Shown: positions 1-63,016 of the stretch, piece after piece | How positions within the stretch are numbered: the first letter of the stretch is position 1 | Layout of the letters: the number at the start of each line of letters is the position of its first letter | Source: a virus | Lineage: Duplodnaviria; Caudoviricetes | DNA length: 64,000 nucleotides | IMG/VR virus record: IMGVR_UViG_3300025606_000003 | Coordinates: 43,036-107,035 of that record | Direction: 5' to 3' (one strand) | The notes under the pieces: generated by a model | Told to the model about the DNA's origin: nothing | What the model saw: only the letters and a program-made list of their open reading frames with translations | The model's database searches: none | Program-made: the position numbers and the translations under genes

Positions 1-866
1 TCGTTAGCGGGGTTATACAGAATGGATTCTGTAAGAATTTCTGGTGCTTCTTTCTTAATCGCCGCTTGCTTGACGGGCACCTTGGCCTGCGCCTCGTTGT
101 AAGCCTCCAGCGCGTTGAGCACGTTGGCCGCCAGCTTGCAGGGCTCGCAGTCGCCAATAAACACTTCTTTGGTGGCAGCCTGCTTGGTCAGATGCGGGTA
201 CACGTTGGCCAGCTTGTTGAGCACAGCGGCCCCCTCGTCGCCCAGACGGAGCTCCGTCTCGCGTACGGCGTCCTTGAAGCTCATGTTGCCCGGGCGGCGG
301 AAATACTCGTGCAGCTCCTCCATCGCGGCAGCAGCCTTCGAGTAGGCCACAGTCGCTTGGCGGCGCAGCTCCTCGGCAGCCAGTTCAGCCGCGCGCTTTT
401 CGCTGGCAGCCCGCCGGACAGCCGCTTCGGGATCCCGGGGCGGCGGAGTCCAGGTTTTTTCGGGCAAAGATATCTTTGCGGCCGCGGCTTTGGTCAGCGC
501 TGACTGCCGCCGAGCAATCAGATCACGCACCGGAATGGTGTACTCGGCCGAAACCACGTGCTGCTGCGAGATCTCAGCCGAAGTTTTTACCGCCTTCGGG
601 TACAACCGGTCCATGACGGTATTGGCGTCAGCAATCGGAAAATCAGCGGCCTTGTCGAGCGTATTCTCGCCCTGCTCGCGCTGTTTGGTTGTTCGGCCCG
701 TGTTATACGCGTGAACCATGAGATTCACGTGCCCGGCCGGAACATTCGACTCAGAGGCGCTTTTTACGATTGCGTCGTCGGGCGCCATGCCGTTATTCAC
801 GTAGCCAGCCGCGCGCTCGATGGCAGCGATCAGTTTTTGCTCGGCCTCTTTAGTCAGTGGGCGCAT
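1..866 (-). CDS. Putative virion protein, N-terminal part (runs off the left edge)
   Basis: ATG at 866 with GGAG upstream; open to position 1 (MRPLTKEAEQKLIAAIERAA...); many K-x-A motifs (VKSAS, DKAAD, EKRAA, TKQAA, VKQAA). Confidence 0.7.
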   Translation of the reverse strand, partial: MRPLTKEAEQKLIAAIERAAGYVNNGMAPDDAIVKSASESNVPAGHVNLMVHAYNTGRTTKQREQGENTLDKAADFPIADANTVMDRLYPKAVKTSAEISQQHVVSAEYTIPVRDLIARRQSALTKAAAAKISLPEKTWTPPPRDPEAAVRRAASEKRAAELAAEELRRQATVAYSKAAAAMEELHEYFRRPGNMSFKDAVRETELRLGDEGAAVLNKLANVYPHLTKQAATKEVFIGDCEPCKLAANVLNALEAYNEAQAKVPVKQAAIKKEAPEILTESILYNPAN

Positions 867-868
867 TG

Positions 869-1798
869 CTATTCTCCGGGAAAACGCAGCTTTTCAATGT
901 CTTGTTGGTTATCTAGTTTACCGCCGGCGGCGAGCAGCATCAGCTCGGCGCTGCTTAATTCTGCTGCACTGTCATCGTAAGGTAACATTTTCGCGTCTAC
1001 GGAATCCAGTTTTGTCCCAACTTTGAACGGGAGCGCGGCCATCATGGCGCCGATATTCTCGACAATCGTGGAGTGCGCTTTCCCGGCATTTTCACTGTTC
1101 TTCTCGATTTCCACATACTTTACAAAGCTCTCGATCAGCGCAATTTGAGTATGCGTGTTGATCGGGATCGTGAGCGTGGCGATGGCGGCTTTGTGCTTTA
1201 CTGTGTTGACGGCAAATTCCTGGAAGAACGTACCAACACCGGACGCGTTGGTCGGCTTGTCGATTGGCGAAAACTTGGAAATCACGGCGTCGAGGACATG
1301 GCTGCCGCCGTGGTAGCCAAACAATTTCCAAAGCAGGTCGTACTGCCGTTCTGTTAACCCGCGTGTGACCGCGTCGGCCATCACCACGTTGACGATGTAG
1401 TCGCGGTTGGCCAGCATTTCCCGAACGTTAAAAAACACAGCTTCGTAGGCCTGAACAATTTCTTCGTCTACGCCCAAACGAGCAGCGATTTGCTTGTCGC
1501 TTTCTCCAGCGAGCACGCGGGCTTCGATGGCCCAGCGTGTCGGCGCCTTGTCTTCTAGCCAAAGCGAGTGCGCCCAAAACAGCGCGCGGTCTTGCTGCAA
1601 CAGTCGGTACAAAATGTCTGGTCGGTTGTTGGCCTGCTCGAACCGCCGTTTCAGCCGAGACGCGCGGCGAATCCACGCAAAACCCTCTTCGCCGTCGCGG
1701 GCGCGGGACGGCCTGGGTCCGGCGGCGTCGATCTGCACAGCCCGCAGCCAGCGCCAGTTCGGGGCACGGCGGGGGCTATCACGTAATTCGTGGAACAT
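869..1798 (-). CDS. Hypothetical protein
   Basis: Long ORF packed tightly against neighbours; start taken at MFHELRD. Confidence 0.75.
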   Translation of the reverse strand: MFHELRDSPRRAPNWRWLRAVQIDAAGPRPSRARDGEEGFAWIRRASRLKRRFEQANNRPDILYRLLQQDRALFWAHSLWLEDKAPTRWAIEARVLAGESDKQIAARLGVDEEIVQAYEAVFFNVREMLANRDYIVNVVMADAVTRGLTERQYDLLWKLFGYHGGSHVLDAVISKFSPIDKPTNASGVGTFFQEFAVNTVKHKAAIATLTIPINTHTQIALIESFVKYVEIEKNSENAGKAHSTIVENIGAMMAALPFKVGTKLDSVDAKMLPYDDSAAELSSAELMLLAAGGKLDNQQDIEKLRFPGE

Positions 1799-1825
1799 GT
1801 TTACAGTTTCATTACAGCACAATTA

Positions 1826-2614
1826 TTACGGCACGTTCTGATCAACAAACCCGAAACAGAGCGTGCAGTAATACTCGGCGGAACCGTAGTTGAACGTCAC
1901 ACTACTCATTGTGCCGTCGATGCGAATGATGTTAAACCCTTCTTCGCCGACAAATTGCGTGTACTGCGTAGGGCTTACTTGATTTAGATATGTCGTTTGT
2001 GTGCCGGAGACAATGCCGTTTGAAGACCAAATTGGTGTAAACGGTTTTGGCGCGCCAACTTCATCAAGCACTATTACAGGAACCTGCAAGCCCTGCTGGC
2101 CGACACTCGCAAATGCGACCAAAGCATCTGTAACGGGCTGGCTAAACACTGCGGTAAATACCCCGGTTTGCGTATTTGCAATTTGATTACCTGTAGTCGG
2201 CACACCGTATTCTGCGGGAAATAGCGCGGCCCCGACCATGCCGGTATGCAAGAACATACCGCCACCGCTTTGAGTAATTGCAACCGTGATGTTGTTCTGG
2301 CCGATTCCAGCCGCCGTAGTGGAAGCTACGCTAAGCATTCTCATCCACTTAAAACCAGAATCGCCAGTGCACGAAAAGTCATCGCAAGTTGCTAGCGGAT
2401 TGTAATTGTCGGCAATGGGGTTTGTGCAGCCATAAACGCATGAAATACACGAGCCGTCGTCGCACGTTGCGTTGGGGTTGTAGTTAAGGGCGGTGTTGTT
2501 CGTGCAGCCATAAACGCACGGCCACACCAATGTGCTGCCTAGATAAATTTTGCTCGCAGGCTGTGCGCCAACGGCGGCCGCAGCTAGGTTGAAAGCGCCC
2601 CGATAAATACTCAC
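1826..2614 (-). CDS. Tail-fibre-associated protein with two Cys-rich GCTNxxAxNYNPxAxxDDxSC repeats
   Basis: KIYLGSTLVW N-terminal motif, typical of genes that follow tail fibres; tandem VYGCTN..A.NYNP.ATCDD.SC repeats. Confidence 0.6.
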   Translation of the reverse strand: MSIYRGAFNLAAAAVGAQPASKIYLGSTLVWPCVYGCTNNTALNYNPNATCDDGSCISCVYGCTNPIADNYNPLATCDDFSCTGDSGFKWMRMLSVASTTAAGIGQNNITVAITQSGGGMFLHTGMVGAALFPAEYGVPTTGNQIANTQTGVFTAVFSQPVTDALVAFASVGQQGLQVPVIVLDEVGAPKPFTPIWSSNGIVSGTQTTYLNQVSPTQYTQFVGEEGFNIIRIDGTMSSVTFNYGSAEYYCTLCFGFVDQNVP

Positions 2615-4404: not shown

Positions 4405-4824
4405 TCAGCGCAGCATCGGCGTCTCAACGGTCACGGTCAGCGCGAAGTCTTTGCTGCCCGTGCCAGACGGTTTGATCCACAGGTAAAGATATCTTTGGGG
4501 ATTCGTCGGCGAGCCGTCACGGTTGATGTACGCCACATTGATATTGCTGTTTTCAGCGATATCTACAACGTCCGGGTCTTCTACAACGTCGGCAAAATCA
4601 GACAAGCTCAACACGTGAAAAGACTCGGCCGGCAAAGACGCGTTGGGCTCTGTTTCCTGGTTGCTGGCATACAGATCGGCCTCGAAACCCGCCTTGGCGC
4701 CGGTGCGCTGCACGAGCTGATAGCCGCGCAGCACGCCACGGTGCGGCATCGAGATCGGGACGATTGTCTCCGCACCGCTCGCCGCCGAAAAAGCCTTCGT
4801 ACCGGACCAGATAGTGCTAGCCAT
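4405..4824 (-). CDS. Hypothetical beta-rich protein (possibly structural)
   Basis: 139 aa ORF in operon context. Confidence 0.65.
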   Translation of the reverse strand: MASTIWSGTKAFSAASGAETIVPISMPHRGVLRGYQLVQRTGAKAGFEADLYASNQETEPNASLPAESFHVLSLSDFADVVEDPDVVDIAENSNINVAYINRDGSPTNPQRYLYLWIKPSGTGSKDFALTVTVETPMLR

Positions 4825-7332: not shown

Positions 7333-9207
7333 TTATGGGCGCCATCCGCTTGTGGCGCCCGTTACGCCAAACTGTTCGCCGCGAGCCAGCGCCGGCACAA
7401 AACTGCTGCCAGATGTGTCGCTAACTCCGCCGTGGTGTACGCTGTCGAGCAGGCCCTTTTGCTGGTAAGACCCGAGCATCCGCGTCATCCAGTCCTGGTC
7501 GTTTGAAATGTTACTCATGCCGCGAACCATTTCCGGCTGAAACGGCGGCGGCGTCCGGTGCGCTTCGATGTTATTGATTCCGTACTTCTGCAACGTATCG
7601 GTCACATTTTTGCCGATTTTTGTTCCAACAGAATAGTGCAGCACTGGGCGCTCTAAGTAATGCCCCGCCAGACTTTTTGGCGCGCCGGTCACGCTACCCG
7701 GCCGCGGCTGCCAATTTCGTTCAACCATCGAATACGGCACGATATCGTCGGGGTTGTAATCACCGTACTCGTCGGTCATTCGCACGTGGTTTACAAGCCC
7801 GCGCGCCAGCAGCTCGATATTGCGCCGCTGCGGCGTAATTCCTGAGTTCTGCATAACCTGCCGCATAGCTGACACAAAATAGCGGCGCCCTTCGCCAACG
7901 CCCTTGTGCCGCACTATTTCGGCCGGACTGGGCATACCGTCTGACAGCACGTCGCCGGCTTCCAGCGAATCGCCTTTCTTCACGATGACTTGCCGGTCGG
8001 CCGGCACGTAATGGTCTTGGCTGTTGACCTGCACGTAAAACCCGCCCTGGGGCGCTGGTCGGATTTCTTGTACGTGCCCGTCAAACTGCGCATGTGTCGC
8101 GCCGTCCGGATATGTTTTCGGTACCTGCACAAGCGCATTGATCGCCTTAAAACCGGCGATTGAACCGGCGCCGCCGACGCCGCCGGAGTGCTTAGAGCTA
8201 ATCTGCGCCTGCGTCACGGGCTCACCTAACGCCTGCGCGGCCGCGATACCAACGTAATCGCCGACAGGTGGTAATTTTCCTTTTTCCCGATAACCAACGT
8301 CACGCGCAAATACGCCGCCATCATCCGGGCCGCCCACCGTCGGACTGCGCACGAGAATATCTTTCATGCCCATTTCTTTGATGTCGCGAAGAATCTTCGG
8401 CGTCAGCATCGTGTTGCGCTTGTACGGGCCGACCGGGCGCGCTAGCAGCGCGCCCTCGTTGTCAGAGTCGTCGACATCGGTCGGAAAGCCTCGGTCAACA
8501 GCGCCAGCTGCGCGCTCTTCGTCGTCATCGTCATCAGATGTAACTAGCAGCCGGTGCGTCATCTGTGAAAGCTGCTTGCTGAAAAACCCAGCGTCGGCGG
8601 TCGCTGTTTTTAGATCCATGACACCTTTACGCGTGCCGAAGGCGCCGGCGAAATATTCAACGGGCCGGAGCCCCTGACCGTAGCCGTGCAGCACCGGAAT
8701 CGGAATCGGGTCGTTCTTGTGGTCGACATACTGCATGTCGGCCCCAATCAGCGAATTCAGGCTGAACTTGTTGCCCTTGCCAACGCCGATGACCTGGTGC
8801 GCCAACGGGTTATCAAAACCTTTTGCTTCGTCGTAAACTTCGTTGACGAGCGAGCGCTGCGTGTCGCCGGCCAGCTTTAAAATTTTCAGTGTGCGCGCTT
8901 TTTCATCCAAGCTGCTGTCTGACAGAATTCCGCGCAGCTGCTGGTTAACTCTGTGTCGCGCGTTCTGGACCGCCACGGTGGCTTTGATATCTTTGAGACC
9001 GAACGACAAGCCGTTGGTGGTATAGCTGGCTTCGCGCCCCACGTCGTGCAACCGCTTCATCACGTCGCGGTATTTCTCGGGATATTTTTCAGCCAGCGTT
9101 GTCGCGAGCTGGGCCATATCTTTTTTTGTCAGCACGCGCTCGTAGTTGCGTAAGTCTTCTGGCAACGCGGCGTTAATGAGTACTTGGCCGAGCGTAGTTT
9201 TCAGCAT
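7333..9207 (-). CDS. rpoC: Phage RNA polymerase beta'-like subunit, C-terminal half
   Basis: Bridge helix TRKGVMDLKTATADAGFFSKQL; trigger loop VGIAAAQALGEPVTQAQISSKHSGG; RRNIELLARGL (cf. DKHIEVIVRQM). Confidence 0.9.
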   Translation of the reverse strand: MLKTTLGQVLINAALPEDLRNYERVLTKKDMAQLATTLAEKYPEKYRDVMKRLHDVGREASYTTNGLSFGLKDIKATVAVQNARHRVNQQLRGILSDSSLDEKARTLKILKLAGDTQRSLVNEVYDEAKGFDNPLAHQVIGVGKGNKFSLNSLIGADMQYVDHKNDPIPIPVLHGYGQGLRPVEYFAGAFGTRKGVMDLKTATADAGFFSKQLSQMTHRLLVTSDDDDDEERAAGAVDRGFPTDVDDSDNEGALLARPVGPYKRNTMLTPKILRDIKEMGMKDILVRSPTVGGPDDGGVFARDVGYREKGKLPPVGDYVGIAAAQALGEPVTQAQISSKHSGGVGGAGSIAGFKAINALVQVPKTYPDGATHAQFDGHVQEIRPAPQGGFYVQVNSQDHYVPADRQVIVKKGDSLEAGDVLSDGMPSPAEIVRHKGVGEGRRYFVSAMRQVMQNSGITPQRRNIELLARGLVNHVRMTDEYGDYNPDDIVPYSMVERNWQPRPGSVTGAPKSLAGHYLERPVLHYSVGTKIGKNVTDTLQKYGINNIEAHRTPPPFQPEMVRGMSNISNDQDWMTRMLGSYQQKGLLDSVHHGGVSDTSGSSFVPALARGEQFGVTGATSGWRP

Positions 9208-10139: not shown

Positions 10140-13100
10140 TTAACTTTCGACGATGTGCACCGGGGAGTCGACGTCAAGTTCGCCCCGGCGGTAAGCGTTA
10201 ATTGCGTCCTGCGTGCTGCGATATACCCTGGGCTTAGCTTTTTTATCGATGCGGCTCGAGGCAAGATACACACCGGTCTGATAGTCCGCGTTCGGCACGT
10301 AATGCGCCTTGAAGTTGGATGTTGCAAAAAGGTTTTTGCTGGGAAGCATCTTTTCGACTGCTTCTTTTGCAGCGTCTTCTGTGCTGGGAACGTGATATTG
10401 CATCGCGTCTCCGTCAAAGTCGGCACCAAAACCTTTTGTAATGACCGGATTAACCTCCATGACCTTGTTTTTTGTAAGCTTTGGATAGAACGCCATCATA
10501 CCGTATCGGTGCAGAACCGGCGCACGGTTGATAACGATAGGCCGAGACGACATCTGGGTCTCCAGCTCTGCCATCGCCTGTTTATTGCGGTCTTCGACAG
10601 CCTGCAGCGCCTGCATGCGCGGTAACCCGCGGCGCACTAGCCCGCGCACAACAAACGGCTTGTAAACGGCCCAGGCCTTGTCTTCGGGCAGCGCGACCTC
10701 GTCCATGTTCAGGTCTGGGTTCGGCGTGATCACCGCCCGGCCCACAAGGTCAACCGTGGTGCTGAGCAACTTACGCTGCACGGTGCCGTATTTGGGCGAA
10801 GAGCCAAAAATATGGGACAAGAAGCCTTTCACGCGGCGTTCCTGGTTTTTTGGCTGCGTCGGATCGCCGAGCCCGGTCACGGCTTTCATAGTGTCGTACA
10901 GCGCCAGCCGTTCGTCGCCATAGCTTTCAAGCGCACCAGATGCCTCTTTCAAAGTGCTGTTGGCGTCCAGCAGTTCTTTGTAGAGATAGTTCGCATCGGC
11001 AACCAGGGGCAGTTTTTTATTACCCATTGTGCTGACCGGCCGGAAGAGCGGCGGCAGGACGGGCATTTTTGTCAGCATCCAATCTTTGGGATGCACGCCG
11101 GTCTGCTCTGCGTTCTTCAAGTATCCCAACTTGCGCACCGCAGCGTCGCGCAGGGTCTTCCGGCCGGACTTGATATCTTCGCGCACCTGCTCGAGCATTT
11201 TTGGCAGGTTAATCCGAGATAGCGCGTTTTGAATCGCTTTGGGCCCAGTCTCGTCGTGGATCTTGGCTTCGCCTGCGAGCACGTTCCGGTACTCTTTTTC
11301 AGTCAGCCCAAGCACGCGACGAATAGGCTCTTCCATGACCGGATTCGGCATCGGTTCGTGCAAAGATATCTTTGCCCACCGGTTGCCGCCGTGGCCGCCC
11401 GTAAGTTTTTCGTCGAAGAGGCCGCCAGCAATCGGCTTCAATCGGCCCTTCCAGTCGACGGTTTCAGAATTCTCGATTTCGCGACCGCCCGCCATGTCAT
11501 CGACGTCTTTGTCGGTCAACGCCATGATGTGCGTCTGGCTGCCAGTGCGCACGGTGTTAATACCGGCGCCCTTCAGCTGGTTAACGAACTTTTCGTAGAC
11601 GTGTGGCACCTTGGGCAACGGCGGAGTGTATCCGGCCATAAATTGCGACCAGTACTCTGGGTTTGCTTGGCCGCGCACCATCTTGGCGTCCCGGATTACT
11701 TTTCCAGCGCCGTGCGACAGTAACGCGCCAAGATCCAACATTCCGACGCGTTTAGCACCTTCGCTGCCGCCCTTGGCCGGAGTGCCTTCGGCTGTGTAAC
11801 TACCCATCGCGCGGCCTTGCCCTTTGCCTTCGGCCGTGTGGTGCAGCTTCATAAAGAACCGGGAACCGGTCAGCACGCCTTTGATCTTACGACCGGTTTC
11901 CGGATCAACTACGTCCTCGGTATCAGAGAGGCCGTGCTTCCCAAGCTCTTTTTGAGCGAAATCAACAAGATCAACACTGCCGTCAAAGTCTTTGAGTTTG
12001 AACGGCTGACCCGTTTTGGCTGCAACTTTTCCAAGCGCGGCCTCGATCACCTGCGCGGGATTCACGCGGCTGATAAGTCCAAGCGGGCTGACCAGCACTT
12101 CATACGGACTGCCGTCTTTATCGTGCGGCATCTGATGGTCAGGCACAATATCGGCAACAACGCCTTTGTCGCCGTATCGCCCGGTCAGCTTATCGCCAAC
12201 CTGCATTTCCGCCTGTGTTTTTACGACGACCTGCACACCCTTGTTGGTATGCGCAACGTCGGTCACGATACCGGGCGAATGATGATCCCAGGTTTCCGAC
12301 TCGTTTGAGAAGTTGCCGGCACGCCCGCGGTGCACTTTGCCGTACGTTGTTTCTTTGGCCTTGGCGTGCAGGATTAGCGGATCACCGAACTGCACAACGG
12401 CGCCCTTCTTGATCGCGCCTTTGTCGTCAAAGTTATCAAGCTGCTTTTTGTCGTACTCGCCGGGAAACAACGCAATAAATGCTTTCTTGCCAGCGTGGCT
12501 CGAGTCTGTCCATTCGGCGGCATGCTGATACATGTGCTCGCTGGTCAGCTTGCGCGCTGTGCTTTGACTGATCACAACCGCGTCTTCGTAGTTCTTGCCG
12601 TGATACGGCAAATACGCCACGCGCAAATTTTTACCCAGCGCTGCAGAACCGGCCGGATCTGTAAAGTTTGAGTGCGCCAGCAGCTGCCCCGGTTGAATAA
12701 CGTCGCCAGGCTGCACCGTCGGTGTTTGATGCCAAAACGTTTTCCGATTGAACGGGTGCTCGTTATACAGATCAATATCGTGTTTGTTGCCGTCGCGATC
12801 GCGCAGCACCATTTTGCCAGGTTCAGTTGAAACAACTTGCCCGTGAAATTGCGCGCGTACAGCGCCCAGCTGCTCGCCCATTTCATCTTCGTGCGACGTG
12901 CCGTCTTTGCCGATAATAGCTGACTGCACGTGTGGCGCTTCAGGTCCAACCAGCGGCAGCGCTTGCGTGAACATGCGGCTCGCCATGATCACGCGGTGGC
13001 CCTTCATGTAAGACTTCATCGGCACCATGTTAGACAGCGCCGAAAACGTGTTGTCCATGTGCGGCAGGCTGTACTGTACTTGCTCGCGCGGCATGTACTT

Positions 13101-19108: not shown

Positions 19109-19117
19109 TCATAGATA

Positions 19118-19555
19118 TCAAACCTCGTCGGACGGGCGCTCGGACACCAGCGTCACGCTAAACGAGCCCGGCGTCGAGGGCCGGAGCGTGTCGGACGCCA
19201 CGAACTCGACCACCGCCGGCTCCGAGTAGTTCCCGGCGTCGTCCACGTCGACCAGCGACAGCACGACGTTCGAGTTCTGCGCAACCTCGATCGTGCCCAG
19301 ATCCGTCGCCGCGCCCTCGTACGACTTCGAGCCCTCGGAAACCCCGTCTACGGTCACCGTCAGCTGCCGGGAAACCACGTCATGGTCGACCGGAGCGCCC
19401 ACCGTCACCTGATACGTCAAAACATCAGCCATAGGACTTTTTCCTTTCTGGGAAACCATCAACAACACAGGCCGCGAAACAGTTGGTCGTTTGTTGAGCC
19501 ACGCGAAGCAGATAAGCAACAGCAGCGCGGCAAGAACTGTAAATAACTTAAGCAT
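19118..19555 (-). CDS. Membrane-anchored Fn3/Ig-like protein
   Basis: N-terminal hydrophobic anchor; DVDDAGNYSEP Fn3-like terminal strand. Confidence 0.55.
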   Translation of the reverse strand: MLKLFTVLAALLLLICFAWLNKRPTVSRPVLLMVSQKGKSPMADVLTYQVTVGAPVDHDVVSRQLTVTVDGVSEGSKSYEGAATDLGTIEVAQNSNVVLSLVDVDDAGNYSEPAVVEFVASDTLRPSTPGSFSVTLVSERPSDEV

Positions 19556-26194: not shown

Positions 26195-26830
26195 TTAGCG
26201 GCAATATCGCAGGCGCTGCTCGCGCCAATATCTGGCCTGCGACGTGACCGGAATGTTGCTGTCGTCGTTGCCTTCTTGAAAACAGAGGGCGTATCGTAGC
26301 GGCATGCCCAGTGGCTGTCCATTGTGTTTGAGATAGTCGCGAGTCATCAGCACATCACAATGGTTGTAGCGCGAAATCGCGAGTAAATCCCGGCAGCCGG
26401 CTGCAGAAACCAGGTATCCGTGCGCGCCCCAGCCAGCTGAAACAATCCGCACGATGTACTTGGAAACCGGCTCCGTGCGGGCGTGCGAACTGTGGAATTG
26501 CCAGAAGCGCCACGTTGCCGGTAACTCGGCGGCAGCGCGCGGAAAGATATCTTTGAAGTCAGATGTGAATACAACGTCATCCTCGAACACGGCAACCGTC
26601 TCGTACCCGCGCTCGAGACAGAGTTTCCAGCAATGTCGGTGGCTGTCCAAGGCGCCTGCGTGCTTGCCATCAATGCCGCCGACTGTTTTAGCCGCGTATG
26701 TAATCGCAGACACACGCTCAACTGGCCAGGCCAGCTGCTGAAACCGCGGCAGCACCGATTCCCAGCGGTCGGCGCGCCGATCCATGTTGACGCAGAGCGC
26801 TGGAATGCGCCGATAGTCTACGAGGGCCAT
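26195..26830 (-). CDS. Glycosyltransferase family 25
   Basis: VNMDRRADRW, SH..W, VFEDD, WGAHGYLVS. Confidence 0.85.
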   Translation of the reverse strand: MALVDYRRIPALCVNMDRRADRWESVLPRFQQLAWPVERVSAITYAAKTVGGIDGKHAGALDSHRHCWKLCLERGYETVAVFEDDVVFTSDFKDIFPRAAAELPATWRFWQFHSSHARTEPVSKYIVRIVSAGWGAHGYLVSAAGCRDLLAISRYNHCDVLMTRDYLKHNGQPLGMPLRYALCFQEGNDDSNIPVTSQARYWREQRLRYCR

Positions 26831-29039: not shown

Positions 29040-29124
29040 TGATATCTATCCGACGCCAACGGCCGCCAGATCTACAGCGGTTTTAGCAAAAACAGGTAAC
29101 GTCTCACAAACTGCGGGAGCATCA

Positions 29125-35595: not shown

Positions 35596-35668
35596 GATTT
35601 TTCCCAGCTAGCAGTGCAGCACAGCAATCCGAAGCCAAAGATATCAATGTGCGTGGTGCGTGCGCCGC

Positions 35669-40450: not shown

Positions 40451-40953
40451 TATTCTTCGCCTTTCCCAGTTGGCCCCGGCGACCGCTTTGCCCAGAACAA
40501 GTTACTCAGCTGCACCCGTGTATATGACTCTGTGAGATTTCCGGCGCTGTCTACCGGCAGGCGCGGATCTTCGCGGTGCCCAACAGGCGCCAGCCATTCG
40601 CCGCATCCGCAGGGCTCGCCTGACGGCGACAGACAGTCACGCGACGCTTCTTCAAACAGGGCGCCGCAAGCATCGCACTCAAACACCCGCCAGCCGGGAA
40701 TCGGTTTACGCATAATTAGGCGTCCTTGCGAAGCTTGCTCGCCGGGCTCTTTGTCGTCCGGCTCAAAGATATCAGGCGCCTTTTTTCCCGCAAGACTGAT
40801 CTCGTAGTCTGCTGGGTAGTGGCGCAAGAGCCGCGCAGCGCGTTGCCGGAGCGCGCGAAAACTGCGAAAGTCGGCAGCTTTACCGGTCAGAATGCTCACC
40901 AGAAACTCGCGGGTGTTCTTCACCGCGCGCGTCCGTTCGTGAGGCAGCGTCAT
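40450..40953 (-). CDS. BPSL0761-like N-terminus fused to a Zn-ribbon
   Basis: MTLPHERTRAV...TREFL...AARLLRHYP; CDACG..C..CGCG. Confidence 0.6.
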   Translation of the reverse strand: MTLPHERTRAVKNTREFLVSILTGKAADFRSFRALRQRAARLLRHYPADYEISLAGKKAPDIFEPDDKEPGEQASQGRLIMRKPIPGWRVFECDACGALFEEASRDCLSPSGEPCGCGEWLAPVGHREDPRLPVDSAGNLTESYTRVQLSNLFWAKRSPGPTGKGEE

Positions 40954-41616: not shown

Positions 41617-44600
41617 CTAAATTCGCGATTTGTTAGCGGCTAGATATGCAGCCGCCGCGCCTAAACCGCCGCCGCCTAGAACGCTGCTCCAGTACAGCAG
41701 CGGATTTGTGTCTTTTTTGTTGCGGGTCAGATAGTGCCCCAAAGCTGCGCCGGCCGCGGTGCCGCCGGTGGTATATCCGATATGCTTGAGTTTGTCCCGG
41801 AAATTGATCAGCGCCTCAGCCTTGGGCAGGTAATTCCCGGTTTGATCTGCGTAACCGGGGCCCGGATTCTCCGCCTCGAGCCGGAATTGCTGCTGGTCAG
41901 TCGGCAAAGACTTGTAAAAGTCTTCCATGAGCTTGACCTGCTCTTCATGCGGCATGAACCGGGTAGTAACCTCAAACGGATTGATCCGCTGGCCGGCGCG
42001 CTGAGCCACGAAATCCTCTAGCTTGCGGCCCATCCAGTCGCTGTAACGCGTGCCCGGCGGCGCCAGCGTTTCCGGTACAGCCCTGTCAGAGAGCCGCGCC
42101 TTGAGCTGGTGCATGTAAGCTGCTACCGGGCCGCGCGAGAACATTTCGTAATGCGCCATACCGCCTACGCCCCGCTGCTCGGCAGGCGTTTTCAGCAAAT
42201 ACGGCTCTGTGCCAAGCCGTTTCATCAAAGTCGGCGAGCTGCGCAGCTTGACCAGTAACTCGCCGACAGGGATACCAAACGGCTTGAGCTGCGCGCCGGG
42301 GCTGAGCGTTTTCTGGTAATAGGTCAAGCCAGTGTAGTTCGGCGGCGGCGTGTTGTTTCGAAACACGTTCGGGTCGTAGTTTTTGACAGCGGCGCGCACC
42401 CGGGCAACCTGCTCGTCGCTCGCAATACCGTAAGCACCGCCAACGCCAAGTTTGCCGGCCAATCCCAACGCCGGAATCATCCACGGAAGCTTCGCAGGTA
42501 ACTTCGCAGGTAACTTCGCCGGGGTTTTCTTGTCGTCTGGCGAAGTCGCGTCGGACTTAGTTTTGGGCTTATGCTCAGGCTTGTCTGTGATTTTTGCCGT
42601 TTTTTGCTGCGTGCCAATCTCGCGCAGCAGCTGCCGAAACTGCTCGTTGAGATGTTCTTTTGTGCTGGCCAGATGCTGGATTACCTCATCGCCGGTGCGC
42701 TGCCGCCGCTGGCCAGTGAGCTTGCCGAGTAGCCCGGGCTCTTCGCTGCGAGATAGATATCTTTGCACGGCGACGTTCTTGAGCTCTTCCGGTAAACCAT
42801 CGTGCGAATCAAATCTGAGGCCGCGACCCTGGGCTTGTTGCAGTCTGGCTTCGTTCCAGTACGGGTCGAGCAGCTGGATCAGGCTTGTACCCTTGGTACT
42901 CAAACCCTCGGCGCCAGCCGGGCCGATCAGCAGCGCCCGGAGTTTGCCCGCGTTATAGTCAGCCAAGGCCTGCTGACGTTGCTTGGTCGAGATACCGCCG
43001 TGGAAAATACCGTACGGAATTTTGTTCTCGGCCAGCCCAGCAGCATACGGACTCAAACCGGCGTCTACGAAGTTCGAGTAAATAATGGCCTTCTTGCGCT
43101 CGTCTGAGTTTAACGTCTCGCGCAGCCGCTTGAAGGCCTCCTGCAGCTTCGCAGATTGCTGGAAGGCCTTTAGCGGGCTCTTGTCGGCCCGGAACGGCTG
43201 CGTAGACAGAGATACCTGCCGCATGCCGGTCATGAAGCTGTTCAGCTTGGCCAGTTCTTCGCGGCTGAGGGGGAACTCTTGATCTAGCTTCCAGAGAAAC
43301 CCAGGCGGTATCTTGGTCCGGATAGCTTTCTGAATACGCTGTTGCTCGGCGCTCAGCGGCACAGACACAGTCTCTTCGTTGATATTCACGCCGGTGGGCG
43401 CTTTGCTGGGCTGGTAATCAATATGGCCCTCGAGCAGCTTGCGCAGTTTGGGGCCGTTCTTCATGATCGGCGTCACACCGGTGCCGGCGCCGTGCAGAAA
43501 GCCCCAGAAGCTCGGCCAAACCTTCTTTTCGCCGATGAAGTCTTTGTCGAACTGCGCAGGGTCATACTTCTCGTTCCGAACAATAGATATCAAACTGGCC
43601 AGGTCTTTTGGCTCGTTCGTAATCGGCGTGCCAGTGAGCAGCATCACTCGTTTGGCGAGGCCGGCGTTTTGCAGGGCGGCTCTGCTCATGGCCGCGTCTG
43701 GATTGCGCAGCCGCGCGGCCTCGTCCATGATGAGCGTGTCAGGCTGCTTCTGGAATTTCTTGCCCATTCCGAGCCCGGTGTAGCTCATGACTTCCGGATG
43801 ACTATCAGTGAACTTCTTGATTTCTTTCTGAAAGTTCCCGCGCAGGCTGGCCGGCGCAACAATGCCGTAGCTGCTGCCGTCGAGCTTTTTGGCGGCTTCT
43901 GCTGCAGCAATCGCCGAGAGAGATTTTCCTGAACCTAGACCGTGATACACGATCATCCGGGGATCTTCGCCAGAAACCCGGTCAGCAATACGTTGCTGGT
44001 GTTCTTGTAGCTGGATTTCGGGCAGCAAAGCAGCTTGTTTACCCAGGCCCTGCACGTACTTCTGCATGGCTTTGCGCTGGTGCTCGTCCAGCATCTCTAC
44101 TACACCGTTTTGCGCCTCGTTAGGGACCATTTTTGCAGGGTCGATCGCCCAGTTGCGCAGCGCCCAGCCCCGCCGTGGCGTTGGGTTCTTGGCAAACGAA
44201 CTGCCGTGCCGGGCTTTGAAGCTCAGCCAGCGCTTGATCTGCCGCGCGTCTTCATCTGGAATTCTGCGCCCAGAAGCATAGCGCTTGTACCACTGCGCCC
44301 AGCCTTTGGGATCATGCTCAGAGATCCACTCGGGCTTCCACTCGCCTAGACTGGCCAGTCTGGGACCCTGCCCTCGGTACAGCGCGTCATACACGCCTAG
44401 GTTTTCAAGCTGCTCTGGCGTGTAGTCTGGCGTAAAGTCGGCAGCAAGCTTCGCCCACGCCCGGCCAGCTGCAACAGCTGCGCTATTTTTTTGCCGCGGC
44501 GGGAGGTTGTTGTAATACCCCTCCGATCCCGGCAGCGCTTCACCCGTAAAACCGTGATCATACACGTACCGCTTACTGTGGTTGTACGTGCCTTTGAGCA

Positions 44601-45975: not shown

Positions 45976-46041
45976 ACGGGCATCCTTGCCGAGAGCCAAT
46001 AGATATCTTTGCGCGCAGCTCAGCGCGCAAGAGCTCTGTTA

Positions 46042-46558: not shown

Positions 46559-47992
46559 TCACTGTTGGGGCGCAGGCGGGCGACGGCTCATCACCTCAGC
46601 CATGCCAACGTCGCCACCGGCAGACGGATACTTGCGCAACAGCTCGCGCTCACCGCCTAACCGATGCTGTTTGATATCAGCTTCGCTAGGCGGCCCAGCC
46701 TGCGTGTTCGGCTCGAGACCGATATTGTCCGTCAGCTCCCGAAGACGGCCGGCTTCTTGAAACAGCGCCCGTTGCTGCGCGCTAGGCGGCCCAGCCTGCG
46801 TGTTCGGCTCGAGACCGATGTTGTCCTTCAGCTCTTGCAGCCGACCGGCTTCCTGAAACAGCGCCCGTTGCTGCGCGAGTTGTTCCGGCAGCACGAGGTT
46901 ATTCGGGTCATCTCCGGCCGGTTCTTGGTCGCCGGCAGCCAACAGCGCAGCGTGATCTTCAGGGGCTGCGCCACCGCCCGCCGAAAGCTGCGCCATTTGC
47001 CGCTCGTGCGCCTTTAGCGCCTCAGACTTGGGCGCCTCTGGAGTTACAGGCGGCTTGCTCCCGCCGAGCTGCGGCAACTTGTCCTTGAGCGAACCAAACA
47101 TTTTCTGCAGCTTGGCGATCTGGTTCGGCGCAAAGCCGCCGACACCAGCGCCAACGCCACCGCCGACAAGACCACCACCGAGCGCACCACGCAACGCAGC
47201 GCCAAGGCGGCCTTTGCGCTGTTTAACAATATTTCCGGCGTCGTCAACAGTCTCTTCTTCGCCCGGATTGAACGCGCCGTACAGGCCGCCAGCCAACGCA
47301 CCCAGACCCGCGCCGCCGAGACCGCCCGCCATCATGGCCGGCGCCCGACTGGGGTTGTGGGGATCAGGCAGCGTGAGCTCGCCCTCGCCCTCGGCCCGCT
47401 TTTCGGCGACGGCCCGTTTGACATAAGCGCCAAACGCGCGCATGTTGGCAGCCTTCTGTTGCTGCTGTTGGCGCTTGTTTTTCCGTGCCGAGTACTTGAA
47501 TTCCATGGAAGAATCTCCTTGAAGGAAAGTAATATCCTGAGCCGTGTTTTTTTTCTCGAGATCGCCGTAAACCAGTTGGCCGCCCGGCAAGTCAGACTGC
47601 CGACGCATGCTGTATTCCATAAGCTCGGGTATACGATTGATCTTGCGGGCCATATCTTCGCCCCAAGTATCTTGCTTACCGGTGATCGCGTTATGAAGGG
47701 CATGCCCAATATCTTCGGTTTTGTACTTGAGCCCTAGGCCAACCCCAGGCAGCCCATACTCAGCAGCGCCACCCAGCGCGCCACCAGCGGCGCCTCCGAT
47801 GAGCGCTCCGCGCAGCCGTTTACCCTTACCGGCTGCCAGAGCGCCAACGCCGGTGCCAAGTCCGGCGGCCATCAACGGCGCAATAAACGCCGGGTCAATG
47901 GCAGAGCTAGCTCCAGCTTTCACAGCGGAGAGCGCGCCGGCTCGGTATTGAAGCTTCTGTGCCATATACTGCGGCCCACACAACAGCATCAA
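46559..47992 (-). CDS. Gly-zipper virion protein with internal 32-aa duplication
   Basis: Two RLRGAL.G..GG hairpin modules; EKRA, QKAA motifs. Confidence 0.7.
   Translation of the reverse strand: MMLLCGPQYMAQKLQYRAGALSAVKAGASSAIDPAFIAPLMAAGLGTGVGALAAGKGKRLRGALIGGAAGGALGGAAEYGLPGVGLGLKYKTEDIGHALHNAITGKQDTWGEDMARKINRIPELMEYSMRRQSDLPGGQLVYGDLEKKNTAQDITFLQGDSSMEFKYSARKNKRQQQQQKAANMRAFGAYVKRAVAEKRAEGEGELTLPDPHNPSRAPAMMAGGLGGAGLGALAGGLYGAFNPGEEETVDDAGNIVKQRKGRLGAALRGALGGGLVGGGVGAGVGGFAPNQIAKLQKMFGSLKDKLPQLGGSKPPVTPEAPKSEALKAHERQMAQLSAGGGAAPEDHAALLAAGDQEPAGDDPNNLVLPEQLAQQRALFQEAGRLQELKDNIGLEPNTQAGPPSAQQRALFQEAGRLRELTDNIGLEPNTQAGPPSEADIKQHRLGGERELLRKYPSAGGDVGMAEVMSRRPPAPQQ
46685..46876. repeat. Near-identical 96-bp tandem duplication
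   Basis: AQQRALFQEAGRL.EL.DNIGLEPNTQAGPPS x2. Confidence 0.9.
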
Positions 47993-49603: not shown

Positions 49604-49637
49604 TTAGATATCCCGGTTAGATATCAATTAGATATCA
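49604..49637. repeat. Triple TTAGATATC cluster
   Basis: GATATC at 49607, 49620 and 49631, each preceded by TTA, essentially intergenic. Confidence 0.9.
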
Positions 49638-51479
49638 GTGTTCGATCTCAGCGCCGTGGGCCGTTGAACCTAACCCGGCGCCAAAGCCGTTACTGTGCGC
49701 CATCGCGTGCTCAAGGCCGTGCAACACCGGGTGCGCAACGGTGTGCGCGGCTTCATATGGCAGCGCGAGACTGTGCGGCAGTAAATTAGTTGGGTTGCCG
49801 GTGTTCGCAAAATTAGTCGGGCCGTTCAACGGGTGGCCGATAGCATCTGCGCCAAGATTGCGCGCCGCCTGCTCAATCGGCGCGCCAATGTTATGCTCAT
49901 AGGCGCGCCATAGATTCTGCGCAGTTTCTGGGACTGCTCGCTGGATCTGTTTGCCAAGCTGGGTTTTCATGTCGCCAAACCGAGCAGCCGTGTTAAGCTG
50001 CGCGTCGCTAAGCCGCAGCGCTGTTTGATGGCCGAACTGTGACAGGTTTCCTGCATACCGGGAAAACGTCGGGAGCATTTGTTGCACGCGCGGGTTTGCA
50101 GCTGCCGCGCCCAGTGCGCCGGCAGCCGTTGTGCCGGCTTGCGCAGCTGTGGTGCCGCCAGCAGCAGCAACAGCCGGAGCAGCCGCAGCTGCGCCGGCCA
50201 CAGCCGGAATTGCTGCAGCAGCTCCGGCGCCCACACCCAGGGCGCCCTGCCCAATCCGCATGTTTTGGGCTTCTCGCGGATCTGTTACTTGCTGGCTTGT
50301 ATTTGGGTTGTACCAGCGACTCAGCGTGTCTTGATAGCCGGCCCGGCCGAACAACCCGCCGATTTGCTTTGGCATCAGCGCGTCTGTGCCAGCAGCCGAG
50401 CGGTTTGGAGTTAGGCCTGTCGGTGCAGCCTGCTGTGGGGCCGCGCCAGTAGTTACCAGCGGCGATTGGGCTGGCTGCAAAGCTGGCGGTGAGCTTGGCG
50501 GCGAGCTCAGCGGTTGCGGTTTAGGCGGCGCCAGCGACGTGGCCGACGTGACAGGCGTAAACTGCCCAGGAGCTTTGCCGGCTGCCGGGCCGGGCCTATT
50601 CAGCGACAGCGTGCCAGACGTTGAAGTTTGGTTTCCTGGTTGTGAATACGGCGCGAACTCTTGGGCCAACTTTAACCGCACAAGTTTGCCGAACTGATAT
50701 GGCTGCATATCGTCAGCTGTCTTTACAGCCCCGGCAATCTTCGAGCTATCCGGCGAGTTCTTTGCGCCGAATGCAGCGTTGCCGTTGAGCTGGCCCTTGT
50801 TGCCCAGGGCGCCGAAAGCCTGAATCGGATTGTGCTGCGGATTGGAGCCCCCACCGACAGGCCCGGCAGGCTGTGTGTTTGCGGGATGCTGCGCAGCCGG
50901 TTGAGCAGCAGCATTTCCAGCGGGGGGCGCCATCCCCATCGGCAGCGGAATCATCGGCGCCGGCATGGACATGCGCTTTAAAAGCATGTTTTGCGGCACG
51001 AAACGCGGGTCGCGGCCTTCCTGTCCAGCATGATGCGCCTCCATCATTTCGCGCAACGGCTTCGCAAGAACTACGGCTAATTTACCGAAAATGGCTTCGA
51101 CAGAGTTGGAGCTGTGATTTTTGCCGTCTGGGCTCGAGTTATGTGTTTCGTCCTGTTTTGGCTGGATTTCTGTACTGTCCTGGCCTGCGTAAGTCGGTTT
51201 GTCGTTCTGTGGCATCTTGACTTGCACCATCCCAGAGTTGGCTTGCTTTATCTCGTTGCCCAGTATAGAGTTACGCTCAGTTTTTTTGGCGTTAGCAAAA
51301 ACTGATAAAACGTTATCAAGTACGGCCAGCGCGGCGGCCTTCTCTTTGGATTCTGGTTCTTGCTTATTTGCGTACATAGGCAGCTTCTTTTGGTTCGGGT
51401 ATTCGTGCGCCCAGCGTTTGGCAATATCCGGATGTGCCGCCCAAAGAAAACGGCGCTGTTTTTCGGATTTAAACGGCAT
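49635..51479 (-). CDS. Modular low-complexity virion protein
   Basis: MPFKSEKQRRFLWA..P..AKRW N-terminal module; EKAAA, IKQAN, SKIAG, VKTAD, LKLAQ; Gly/Ala zipper. Confidence 0.7.
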   Translation of the reverse strand: MPFKSEKQRRFLWAAHPDIAKRWAHEYPNQKKLPMYANKQEPESKEKAAALAVLDNVLSVFANAKKTERNSILGNEIKQANSGMVQVKMPQNDKPTYAGQDSTEIQPKQDETHNSSPDGKNHSSNSVEAIFGKLAVVLAKPLREMMEAHHAGQEGRDPRFVPQNMLLKRMSMPAPMIPLPMGMAPPAGNAAAQPAAQHPANTQPAGPVGGGSNPQHNPIQAFGALGNKGQLNGNAAFGAKNSPDSSKIAGAVKTADDMQPYQFGKLVRLKLAQEFAPYSQPGNQTSTSGTLSLNRPGPAAGKAPGQFTPVTSATSLAPPKPQPLSSPPSSPPALQPAQSPLVTTGAAPQQAAPTGLTPNRSAAGTDALMPKQIGGLFGRAGYQDTLSRWYNPNTSQQVTDPREAQNMRIGQGALGVGAGAAAAIPAVAGAAAAAPAVAAAGGTTAAQAGTTAAGALGAAAANPRVQQMLPTFSRYAGNLSQFGHQTALRLSDAQLNTAARFGDMKTQLGKQIQRAVPETAQNLWRAYEHNIGAPIEQAARNLGADAIGHPLNGPTNFANTGNPTNLLPHSLALPYEAAHTVAHPVLHGLEHAMAHSNGFGAGLGSTAHGAEIEH

Positions 51480-52923: not shown

Positions 52924-53269
52924 CTTCGGGTTTGATATCTAACCCGGGCGCTGATAGCTAAGAGAAGACGCAGACCACGGGCTTACGCCCTGTGACCTGG
53001 CTTCCCTGCGCTTGGGGCGCGGCGGCTCGCGGAGGCTTACGCCTTCCGCAACCGCCATTGCTTGCCCTCGATCAGCCCGGCCGCTATCGTCTTTCGCGCC
53101 TTGCGGCGCGACGGGCCCGGGATCTTTTCCCATGTTGCCCACGCCTTAGCGTCCTTCGACCAGAACTCAAGGTTGTACATGTCTACCTCCAAACTTTTGC
53201 GACATTACTGTTGTCGCGAAACAGCGCGCCCCGTTGAATTACGCGCTGGGGGCGCAGACAGCACACCAC

Positions 53270-55189: not shown

Positions 55190-55236
55190 GAGTTCACCTC
55201 TACTTAGAGTTAGATATCAATTCAACAAAGAACAAA

Positions 55237-57140: not shown

Positions 57141-57149
57141 CAAGGCCAG

Positions 57150-59894: not shown

Positions 59895-59917
59895 GTGCCC
59901 CTCCTTGGGATAGATAT

Positions 59918-60169
59918 CTATCTCGGCATTGTTTGGGCGCCGAGTTTCCCAGATGCCCAATTATCTTGGACGTATGCCAAGAAAATGTGGATCGCCTCTA
60001 TGCTGTTCGTGTAGAACGGATCAACATCTGTGCCGGCGATTTTCTTCGCCAACTCCGGGTTTACGTCGTATAGGGCGTTGAAATAAGCCTGCCCAAGCCG
60101 ACAGTGCTTACGATGCCGGTCGTAGTGCGCGATGGCCTCGCGCACATAATCCTGATAGGAGGCGGGCAT
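59918..60169 (-). CDS. Hypothetical phage protein (RLGQAYFNAL..DPFY)
   Basis: Motif recurrent in small phage proteins; GGAG RBS. Confidence 0.65.
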   Translation of the reverse strand: MPASYQDYVREAIAHYDRHRKHCRLGQAYFNALYDVNPELAKKIAGTDVDPFYTNSIEAIHIFLAYVQDNWASGKLGAQTMPR

Positions 60170-60688: not shown

Positions 60689-60745
60689 GCGTACACGCTC
60701 CTTTCGTTCCTTGAAAAGCCCCAGAAAAAGCCACGCGGGGCAAGT

Positions 60746-60775
60746 AATATGCCCTGAAAACGGCGGCAGTTTAGC
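60746..60775 (-). promoter_or_regulatory. Repeated promoter, copy 4
   Basis: GCTAAACT-N14-GGCATATT. Confidence 0.7.
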
Positions 60776-61961: not shown

Positions 61962-61971
61962 GATGGGCTCG

Positions 61972-62340
61972 TTACTCCGAGAACGGCAGATCTAACTGTG
62001 TCGATAAATCTGGTTGCGTAACAAACCGGGCTTTTGGCTTACTGTTGGGTACATACAGCACGTAAGCCTGATCCGGCCCAAACCGAAAAACAACGTCGTT
62101 CTCGGCGACAGGTTCCGGCTTTATGTCGCGATTCAGCAGTTTTCGCAACATGTTGTTTTCAATTACTAGTGCAGCAATCTGCTCAGCCAGCGCTCGGACA
62201 GAGTCGTTGGGCCACGGAATCAGATTTTTCAGGCCTGTCTGCGCTACAGAAAGCAGCTGCGTAACCACCCAGTCAGGCAAGCTAACCATTTCAGCGCGCG
62301 GCAAGTTATTTTGACAGCAACCTTCTTTTTTGCAGGCCAT
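61972..62340 (-). CDS. Hypothetical protein
   Basis: Start MACKKEG follows the tdk stop. Confidence 0.55.
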   Translation of the reverse strand: MACKKEGCCQNNLPRAEMVSLPDWVVTQLLSVAQTGLKNLIPWPNDSVRALAEQIAALVIENNMLRKLLNRDIKPEPVAENDVVFRFGPDQAYVLYVPNSKPKARFVTQPDLSTQLDLPFSE

Positions 62341-62383
62341 GATTCTTTCTTTCGTAGCGAATAGCTGCGCCAAAAAGCCAAGC

Positions 62384-63016
62384 TTACACGATAACTGTTT
62401 TAGCTGCTTGAAGCCTGGCGCGGTTTGCTTTCCAGTGCTGCTCTTGATAACACGCCGCACAAGTTGCCACGTATTTGTCTTCAAAACCGAGTTCAACTGA
62501 AGGGCCGTCTAAGCTGGCCAGCCCATCGACTAGCTTGAGATTAAAAATGGCTTTGGATTCGCAGTAGTGACAGATCGTTTTGATCTCTTCAATTGAATCG
62601 GCCAGTTCCATGAGCCGTTGCGCTGCCGGGAACGCCTGCCGACGGAAATCCGTGCGCAGGCCGTAGCAGATCACCGGAATGCCGCGCCGGTTGTAGGGCC
62701 GGTAGGTACACGCGTGCGCCAGGCTCGAGAACTGGTCAATGCAGTCAGGATGCAAAAACTGCGCCTCGTCGACCAGCACGCATGCCGTGTCTTCTGGAAA
62801 CTCAAAAGATATCTTTGCGCCGTCAGGGACCAAGATATCTGCGTGCTCGCGCAAACCGGCCCGGGTCGCAATCCATTCAACACCAGAGCGGGTGTCTGTT
62901 GCTGGCTTGACCAAAATCACCCGTTTGCCCTGCTGTCGGTAGTTATGCGCCACAGCTAGCAGGTTTAGCGTCTTGGCTGAGTTCACAGTGCCGTACCGAA
63001 AATACAGCTTTGCCAT
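62384..63016 (-). CDS. tdk: Thymidine kinase
   Basis: YGTVNSAKT, LVDEAQF, YGLRTDF, C..C Zn sites. Confidence 0.93.
   Translation of the reverse strand: MAKLYFRYGTVNSAKTLNLLAVAHNYRQQGKRVILVKPATDTRSGVEWIATRAGLREHADILVPDGAKISFEFPEDTACVLVDEAQFLHPDCIDQFSSLAHACTYRPYNRRGIPVICYGLRTDFRRQAFPAAQRLMELADSIEEIKTICHYCESKAIFNLKLVDGLASLDGPSVELGFEDKYVATCAACYQEQHWKANRARLQAAKTVIV

Follow-up and report, generated by a model that had tools for sequence, protein, structure and literature searches.

Evenly Spread Palindromes in a Family of ~200-kb Phages: Putative Docking Sites for a Dimeric DNA-Binding Factor

Introduction

Why does a phage repeat one palindromic word every few thousand base pairs, and mostly inside its genes? 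The question is raised by the IMG/VR virus record IMGVR_UViG_3300025606_000003, a 107-kb sequence (CheckV completeness 52%) that was found in freshwater DNA metagenomes only. The window analyzed here, meaning the whole stretch of 64,000 nucleotides, corresponds to bases 43,036-107,035 of this record and contains 19 copies of the palindrome WWWGATATCWWW, referred to below as the lattice word. Our literature search found no paper describing this palindrome lattice. We argue that selection acts on the DNA itself and that the copies probably serve as sites for a symmetric DNA-binding factor.

The RNA polymerase of the phage under study (designated G000) recurs at 71-85% identity in 35 IMG/VR contigs, the complete ones being 198-205 kb long. 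Ten relatives, nearly or fully whole, were fetched for comparison, the later five being oriented by majority strand; G011 is a complete sister genome.

Over-representation of the Word

The initial annotation listed 19 start coordinates for the palindrome and estimated that fewer than 0.1 copies would arise by chance. Both statements held: each coordinate is an exact match to WWWGATATCWWW, and dinucleotide-preserving shuffles of the window give 0.02 expected copies (maximum 1). Across the 107-kb record the word occurs 27 times and its backwards control not once. The core GATATC is found 33 times in the window against 4.9 expected, and AGATATCTTT 13 times against 0.19 expected under a third-order Markov model. 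GC content, first put near 60% by eye, measures 57-63% in the window and 58% over the record. In its general form the word reads V-A-W-A-GATATC-T-W-T-B, a motif also written AWAGATATCTWT.

The motif is cleanly separable from the background, as indicated by a difference in reading frame. The 14 genic GATATC copies of the window without full W3 flanks are all in frame 0, where they spell Asp-Ile codons, whereas W-flanked copies occupy all three frames or lie between genes. The partial copies that had been reported at 11170, 40765, 46670, 49604, 49628, and 62832 are real GATATC sequences with W3 on at most one side. Two-thirds of the copies are genic and occur at any depth in the gene, with no excess toward gene ends. 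Non-coding DNA, which amounts to 6-8% of the total, holds 23%-40% of the sites, a 4-5-fold enrichment.

Selection on the DNA

After synonymous codons had been shuffled with the proteins and codon usage held fixed, ~8 of the 19 window copies were left, essentially the intergenic ones that the procedure does not shuffle. A codon-opportunity test considered all positions at which the peptide permits the word through synonymous codons alone. The word is spelled at 18 of 32 such positions in G000 (56%) and at 32 of 56 in G011, versus 2 of 40 in the lattice-poor sister G010.

Codon alignments of orthologues place the rare codons AGA, ATA, TTG, and CAA, together with residue replacements, exactly at the sites. 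In the polymerase, relatives read TGG AGC AAG ATC ACG CTG CAC (WSKITLH), and G000 and G011 read TGG GCA AAG ATA TCT TTG CAC (WAKISLH). Elsewhere QRYL is spelled CAA AGA TAT CTT rather than CAG CGT TAC CTG. Several sites needed amino-acid changes, one example being the replacement of PTTVYV by PKDIYV. The unusual spellings to which attention had first been drawn are part of the same pattern, with KIS written AAG-ATA-TCT in three unrelated genes (sites 466, 11362, and 62805) and QRY written CAA-AGA-TAT in two (sites 4485 and 42753). The use of synonymous opportunities, the rare codons and the residue changes bear out the earlier proposal: the word is selected at the DNA level, not at the protein level.

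Sites are placed where the cost is lowest: between genes, on stop codons, or in codon runs able to spell the word. Gene ends make use of the stop-bearing variants (ATAGAT, TTAGAT, ATTGAT, TTTGAT), and in 22 of 60 intergenic sites the upstream gene's stop codon lies inside the word or touches it.

Two-Fold Symmetry and Co-variation of the Half-Sites

Symmetry was assessed on 186 sites from five lattice-rich genomes, all read on the sense strand. A occupies position 1 in 82% of them, mirrored by T at position 12 in 87%; A likewise occupies position 3 in 84%, mirrored by T at position 10 in 86%; at positions 2 and 11 either A or T is allowed. In the flanks, T hardly ever occurs at -1, nor A at +1; A is under-represented at -3/-2, as is T at +2/+3. 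The word is thereby mirror-symmetric over 14-18 bp, despite the fact that ~97% of genes lie on one strand. Left and right differ in one respect only: AAA is favored over ATA on the left side. This bias is seen in genic sites only and is not significant between genes; it fits the fact that ATAGAT carries a TAG stop on the sense strand.

A natural variant is provided by the relative G003, in which 69 of 80 half-sites (86%) have the form WWTGAT|ATCAWW, as in TGATATCA, whereas the other genomes have AWAGAT|ATCTWT. G003 is also without the AGATATCT sites at the QRYL positions that others keep. If the reader is a dimer, the two halves are expected to change in concert. The dimeric logic put forward in the initial annotation is supported by the sequences, in which the site has two-fold symmetry and its halves co-vary from one sister phage to another.

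Even Spacing, Conserved Density, and Turnover

The sites had been described as quasi-regularly spaced at about 3.5 kb. The mean is indeed 3,463 bp in the window, and the intervals are more even than random, with a coefficient of variation of 0.535 vs 0.95 for random placement (P=0.002); periodicity was not borne out, and the array is evenly spread, not periodic. Over the record the coefficient is 0.62 (P=0.004), with a largest gap of 9.4 kb, and in G011 it is 0.60 (P=0.0001), with gaps from 561 bp to 10.9 kb. Spacing is likewise under-dispersed in G001, G002, G003, and G006.

Exact copies number 20-31 per 100 kb in G000, G001, G002, G003, G011, and G015, 19 in G006, 8 in G007, and 1-4 in G017, G013, and G010. 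With one core mismatch allowed, the figures per 100 kb become 33 in G017, 26 in G007, 36 in G006, and 16.5 in G013; the backwards core in the same test gives 0-5 sites per genome, and G010 is marginal, with 18 sites vs 5. The variant cores occur in complementary pairs (GTTATC/GATAAC, AATATC/GATATT) and are symmetric in aggregate. Word density is kept at ~25-35 copies per 100 kb across the phage family. The presence of degenerate versions at comparable density in relatives means that density is the conserved quantity and that the clade of G000 sharpened the spelling; the exact word is thus younger and less widespread than the lattice.

Whether relatives keep the density of sites while positions turn over had been proposed as a check, and this is what syntenic spans display: 19 sites in G000 correspond to 19 in G011, 18 in G001, and 18 in G002, and about a third of the sites are at the identical place. 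Unshared sites have a partner at a median of 400-600 bp, vs ~1,250 bp when points are placed at random.

A Probable Lattice of Docking Sites

The best explanation, to which we give a probability of roughly 0.55, is that the sites would constitute a lattice, extending over the whole genome, at which a sequence-specific DNA-binding factor of two-fold symmetry (a dimer) docks. The putative factor is most likely encoded by the phage and co-evolving with the sites. Each site would be read by a dimer, and the unit of selection would be coverage of the whole chromosome, with no gap larger than ~10 kb, rather than control of particular genes. From its sites the factor could mark, spread along, block, or organize the DNA, and the minority of sites that abut promoter -35-like boxes may modulate transcription by the phage polymerase. 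A per-gene operator had already been judged a poor fit in the initial annotation, and we concur, as no gene family has an upstream site in more than 5 of the 11 genomes. An auto-regulated binder gene was rejected on the same count.

A bolder version is possible, though well short of probable. The lattice could be a chromosome-wide cis-code new for viruses, in which a phage-encoded reader loads at sites no more than ~10 kb apart and covers or marks the genome, with reader and sites co-evolving fast enough to differ between sister phages. Such a reader might distinguish phage from host DNA for a nuclease, or it might load a sliding or spreading factor that aids the injected polymerase.

Several observations weigh against a lattice of docking sites for a phage-encoded dimer. 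Pfam scans of 231 G011 proteins returned no classical DNA-binding family among the matches listed, which included a sigma-like protein, PhoH, CsrA, DNA polymerase A, a DnaG-type primase, RecA-like and SbcC/Rad50-like proteins, a UDG-family protein, and a large sugar-nucleotide and glycosyltransferase module. Six-frame searches of G000, G011, G003, G010, and G017 gave no match to the ParB N-terminal domain (PF02195), for which the control search gave matches in 11 of 14 known genomes; the resemblance to parS or matS proposed at the outset is thus one of logic only. Presence/absence profiling identified 36 G011 proteins that are found in G003 and absent from G013 and G010, mostly from the sugar-modification module, and none of them tracks the lattice everywhere. 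The cultured but distant relative Arash, a Salmonella phage, carries the word once; terminator hairpins apart, no exact-palindrome lattice was found in it, and it was rejected as a laboratory model. A lattice site lies 4-25 bp upstream of the -35-like box in 6 of 27 copies of a two-box promoter-like motif (P ~7e-5), and some sites may on this account have a transcriptional role; most sites are far away. Finally, the gene coordinates come from our own heuristic codon-usage gene caller.

Alternative Explanations

Among the rivals, the least improbable is that the word is the target of a symmetric enzyme: a type-II-like methyltransferase, a base modifier, or a nuclease of the restriction fold, whose rare nick or cut could seed recombination-dependent replication or recombination. 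We regard it as unlikely. The site is strictly palindromic, GATATC is the classic type II target of EcoRV, and the phages encode RecA-like, SbcC/Rad50-like, and PD-(D/E)XK proteins in addition to the sugar-nucleotide/glycosyltransferase module. Against this, DNA methyltransferases of the D12, N6_N4, Dam, and C5 families (PF02086, PF01555, PF05869, PF00145) were absent from the same five genomes in six-frame searches, and modification alone does not account for the enrichment and the even spacing. The suggestion of a sequence-specific modification made in the initial annotation thus found no phage enzyme to carry it out. The PD-(D/E)XK genes (PF11645) are patchy among the sister phages and look like mobile homing endonucleases, and they are absent from the lattice-rich G003. 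The member that lies beside the 20-bp palindrome was rejected as a candidate binder on the same grounds.

Could the word instead be a promoter or initiation signal for the virion-type multisubunit RNA polymerase of the phage, a series of spaced boosters along a one-way chromosome of 200 kb? The phage does encode its own RNA polymerase, G011 has a sigma-like protein with a Sigma70_r3 match, and ~97% of genes are on one strand. In addition, the 4-5-fold enrichment of sites between genes and the many sites 15-90 nt upstream of a start codon are compatible with this idea, as is one orthologous position at which a GTATACT box in G010 and G017 corresponds to GATATCTAC in G000. A promoter of such a polymerase would be directional, essentially intergenic, and placed at a set distance ahead of transcription units, however, and the word is symmetric and mostly genic: the 186 co-oriented sites show no directional asymmetry, the genic two-thirds lie at arbitrary depth without excess near gene ends, and in G003 the change affected the two halves symmetrically. 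In places a site overlaps a start or stop codon, and distances to start codons range from -1 to >300 nt, none being fixed. We therefore think this explanation improbable.

The family also has separate promoter-like motifs that are intergenic and directional, which makes it unlikely that the palindrome is itself a promoter. The two-box motif consists of GCTAAAT, ~15 nt, and GGCATAT(t); it is strictly intergenic, directional, and family-wide, even in lattice-poor G010, at ~5-10 copies per genome. It is present on the minus strand of the window at 52190-52260, 52870-52930, 53750-53810, and 60720-60790, and also in G010, G011, and G017, and is probably a promoter class of the sigma-containing phage polymerase. 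A second motif, a T-rich stretch followed by GTATACT, is located 20-60 nt upstream of some large, probably structural, genes (G010 at 65556, 72523, 120086, 124502, and 188827; G017 at 148839 and 152112; G000 at ~31,720 of the record, outside the window). It resembles a promoter class of the extended -10-like type and occurs alongside the lattice. GTATAC as an ancestor of GATATC was rejected, since T-rich GTATACT boxes and the lattice coexist in G000 and G011. A third box, (t)TAGCTATCAGCGC, directly follows GC-rich hairpins with a T run that resemble terminators, at ~51540, 52270, 52960, and 54070 on the minus strand of the window and at 14931, 15572, 17332, 67451, and 70414 in G010; by its sequence context it would be either a terminator-linked signal or a second promoter element.

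More doubtful still is a reading of the word by a host protein, either as a self or protective mark of the Chi kind or as a decoy that would engage a nucleoid protein or a defence sensor of the host. One site per 3.5-4 kb with a bounded largest gap (9.4 kb in G000, 10.9 kb in G011) fits a requirement for coverage, no phage binder was found, and the differences in spelling between sister phages could reflect a difference in hosts. The known Chi and KOPS words lack symmetry and depend on orientation, unlike the symmetric word described here. An element acting in RNA, where self-complementary AU-rich words would pair as processing or stability signals, is very improbable: all sites do fall on the strand that is transcribed in long one-way blocks of genes and a few extend to 16-20 bp and could form hairpins, but most copies are 12-14 bp without a loop and would give weak AU-rich hairpins, cleavage within essential RNA polymerase or helicase genes would be harmful, and flank symmetry at the DNA level adds no pairing.

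Sites along the Window

The first site, AAAGATATCTTT at 466..477, lies inside a 478-aa gene in frame 2 (AAKISLP). It forms the core of a 16-bp palindrome (464-479), one of the three extended palindromes that were correctly noted in the initial annotation, the others being at 11360-11375 (16 bp) and 33941-33960 (20 bp). The same position is spelled in G001, G015, G002, and G011; other codons or residues occupy it in G003, G006, G007, G017, G013, and G010. The copy of AAAGATATCTTT at 4485..4496 is inside a 139-aa gene (4405-4824) in frame 1 (PQRYLYL; CAA AGA TAT CTT). It is retained in G001, G015, G002, G011, G006, G007, and G017, and the corresponding residues in G003, G013, and G010 are QR[YF]L or KRFL, with CGT/CGG codons.

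Both genes for the large polymerase subunits carry a site. The one at 8983..8994 is in frame 0 of the RNA polymerase beta'-C gene (LKDIKA) and is common to G001, G015, G002, G003, and G017. The one at 11362..11373, the core of its 16-bp palindrome, is in frame 2 of the beta/beta'-N gene; here WAKISLH in place of the WSKITLH of the family needed amino-acid changes as well as rare codons, and the site is common to G011 only.

At 19111..19122 the site is at a gene junction, and the word contains the stop codon of gene 19118-19555. The site at 23103..23114 covers codons 6-9 of gene 22089-23129 (DLDINV); G001, G015, and G002 carry a site at the same place with other residues (KDIF or IDIF). A further AAAGATATCTTT, at 26543..26554, lies in frame 0 of gene 26195-26830 (FKDIFP) and is common to G015, G002, and G003, the reading in G001 and G011 being FAAVF or FSAVF. 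The last bases of the site at 29038..29049 include the ATG of gene 28677-29039. The site at 33290..33301, in codons 5-9 of gene 32878-33315 (DELISLL), is found only in G000.

The site at 33945..33956 is the core of the perfect 20-bp palindrome GCGGAAAGATATCTTTCCGC and opens a conserved non-coding stretch of ~140 nt. The stretch is kept in G011, G003, G001, and G015 and partly in G017, G007, and G013. It occupies ~33820-33965 on the minus strand and is ~80% conserved in sister phages with or without the downstream endonuclease gene. Because it is conserved where the endonuclease domain is missing, these first 140 nt of the long PF11645 open reading frame are taken as non-coding. No Rfam match was obtained in the stretch; a structured RNA is one possibility and a composite regulatory region another. 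The two PF11645 genes are located on the minus strand at 33312-33794, adjoining the 20-bp palindrome, and at 56110-56535, adjoining a tmRNA gene.

The site at 35637..35648 is intergenic, between genes 35669-38041 and 34957-35595, and a half-site copy with a single W3 flank, CCTGATATCTTT, is found at 40765..40776. The SNF2-type helicase gene holds two sites. The first, at 42753..42764 in frame 1 (VQRYLSR), is retained in G015, G011, G006, G007, G017, and G013 and absent in G003 (QRFL, CGC); the second, at 43583..43594 in frame 2 (ASLISIV), is common to G015 only. Another site, at 45999..46010, is intergenic and 24 nt upstream of the helicase start codon, and a second half-site copy with a single W3 flank, GCTGATATCAAA, is at 46670..46681.

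A cluster of three GATATCTAA units occupies the intergenic positions 49604..49639. Spacings of 11 and 13 bp separate the units, of which the central one (49617-49628) is a full site and the first contains the stop codon of gene 49635-51479. The intergenic site at 52931..52942 precedes by 9 bp the -35-like box of a GCTAAAT-N15-GGCATAT promoter-like motif, and that at 55210..55221 lies between a tRNA-Thr gene (55236-55310) and the start of gene 54593-55189. The site ATAGATATCTAT at 59910..59921 marks a gene junction, where gene 59918-60169 ends on a TAG inside the word and another start codon follows 16 nt downstream. The last copy of AAAGATATCTTT, at 62805..62816, is inside a thymidine-kinase-like gene (62384-63016) in frame 2 (GAKISFE) and is found only in G000; a half-site copy lies near it, at 62831-62842.

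The Source Phage and Its Relatives

A codon-usage caller predicted 118 genes, 117 of which are on the minus strand. In the record and all ten relatives, ~95-99% of the roughly 250 genes carried on ~200 kb share one strand. This near-total single-strand coding is an extreme layout for a jumbo phage. The RNA polymerase is of bacterial type and unusually split: beta is fused to beta'-N in a protein of 1802 aa (10140-15548, minus strand), and beta'-C is a separate protein of 624 aa (7333-9207, minus strand). The SNF2-type helicase of 1452 aa is encoded at 41617-45975, also on the minus strand.

No DNA similarity to known phages was found by blastn. The closest cultured relatives are Arash (33% identity over the polymerase) and the Vibrio phages D69, D181, and D148. 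Arash has the same polymerase/helicase gene layout as G000, and the polymerase subunits, the sigma factor, and the helicase are abundant in its virions (PMC10585845).

Other features of these genomes can be mentioned. The tmRNA gene is at 55774-56119 on the minus strand (Rfam RF00023, 110.7 bits), and its neighbors are five tRNA genes (Thr, Lys, Leu, Val, Glu) at 55236-57389. A glycosyltransferase module (GT8-like, mannosyltransferase-like, and GT25) with a cupin is located at 26195-32317 and 38016-38444 of the window and at 8.5-23.5 kb on the sense strand of G011; it is confined to the lattice-rich clade, and sugar-nucleotide enzymes are encoded elsewhere in G011. The module may act on the capsid, the DNA, or the host surface. 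G011 also encodes the N-terminal domain of a MazZ-like dATP/dGTP diphosphohydrolase (PF18909), as well as a MazG domain. A targeted six-frame search gave no PurZ, and with MazZ-like and MazG domains but no PurZ a 2-aminoadenine genome is not indicated. In G010, no alternative palindrome lattice was found; its enriched inverted repeats are coding repeats of one collagen-like gene (sense strand, 186,690-187,210), which gives rise to spurious CAGCAA-N4-TTGCTG repeats.

Significance

The signal is unusually clean. In these phages a non-coding requirement overrides protein coding, to the extent that core genes, including those for RNA polymerase, accept rare codons and residue changes in order to carry a 12-14-bp word. 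Word number per length of DNA is conserved even as positions drift. Dispersed phage palindromes, such as those of Cluster O mycobacteriophages, have been without explanation for a decade. Here, a sharply defined site, the natural specificity variant G003, and a series of ~200-kb genomes that runs from loose to strict spelling make the reader protein findable. If the lattice marks or organizes the whole chromosome, it would represent a new layer of phage genome biology and offer a useful orthogonal protein-DNA pair.

Comparison with Known Systems

In cellular chromosomes, matS/MatP, SBS/SlmA, and NBS/Noc are systems of scattered 12-16-bp palindromes that are read by dimers and organize or mark the chromosome rather than single genes. 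Unlike the phage lattice, the matS, SBS, and NBS arrays are cellular, linked to cell division, and either restricted to the Ter region or kept out of it. In the five genomes no Noc/ParB homologue was found; MatP and SlmA homologues were not specifically searched for. An EcoRV-like restriction-modification system would include a cognate methyltransferase, and none of the four methyltransferase families was found in the five genomes; a Chi-like word would be asymmetric, orientation-dependent, and over-represented in the chromosome of the host, whereas the lattice word is symmetric.

The stoperators of Cluster A mycobacteriophages, bound by the L5 gp71 repressor, combine tens of copies of a short word with one phage protein and a global effect on transcription. 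They lack symmetry, point in the direction of transcription, lie mostly between genes, and are found in temperate phages (contrasted in PMC4351075). The lattice resembles them in having tens of copies; its word is symmetric and mostly genic and thus lacks their asymmetry.

The IncP plasmid RK2 has 12 OB sites on 60 kb, mostly intergenic, some of which abut promoters whereas others are distant. Its KorB protein loads as a dimer at the palindromic OB sites and acts at long range (McLean et al., 2025; PMC11790492). The lattice likewise consists of dispersed palindromic sites, some at promoter-like motifs and most of them distant. It differs in that KorB belongs to the CTPase clamps of the ParB family, and the ParB N-terminal domain was not found in the five genomes of the lattice family; in addition, that family has ~50 sites on 200 kb, mostly genic, compared with 12 on 60 kb in RK2. 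KorB is the nearest mechanistic model, but since the defining ParB domain is absent here, it offers a resemblance of logic and not membership.

The nearest described phenomenon is the repeat of the Cluster O mycobacteriophages (Corndog and its relatives), an invariant 17-bp dyad, TGTTCGGNNNCCGAACA, with more than 30 copies, about a third of them genic (PMC4351075). This repeat has no meaningful orientation and is not tied to start codons, and its function and its binder are not known (Cresawn et al., 2015; PMC4351075). The lattice shares its main traits: one dyad-symmetric word in tens of copies, partly genic and unoriented. The two differ in sequence and lineage, which are unrelated; Cluster O phages are ~70-kb siphoviruses that use the host polymerase, and their repeats are denser toward one genome end. 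The lattice, unlike the Cluster O repeats, is evenly spread, mostly genic, forced in by rare codons, and co-varying between sister phages. The resemblance is thus one of kind and not of common descent.

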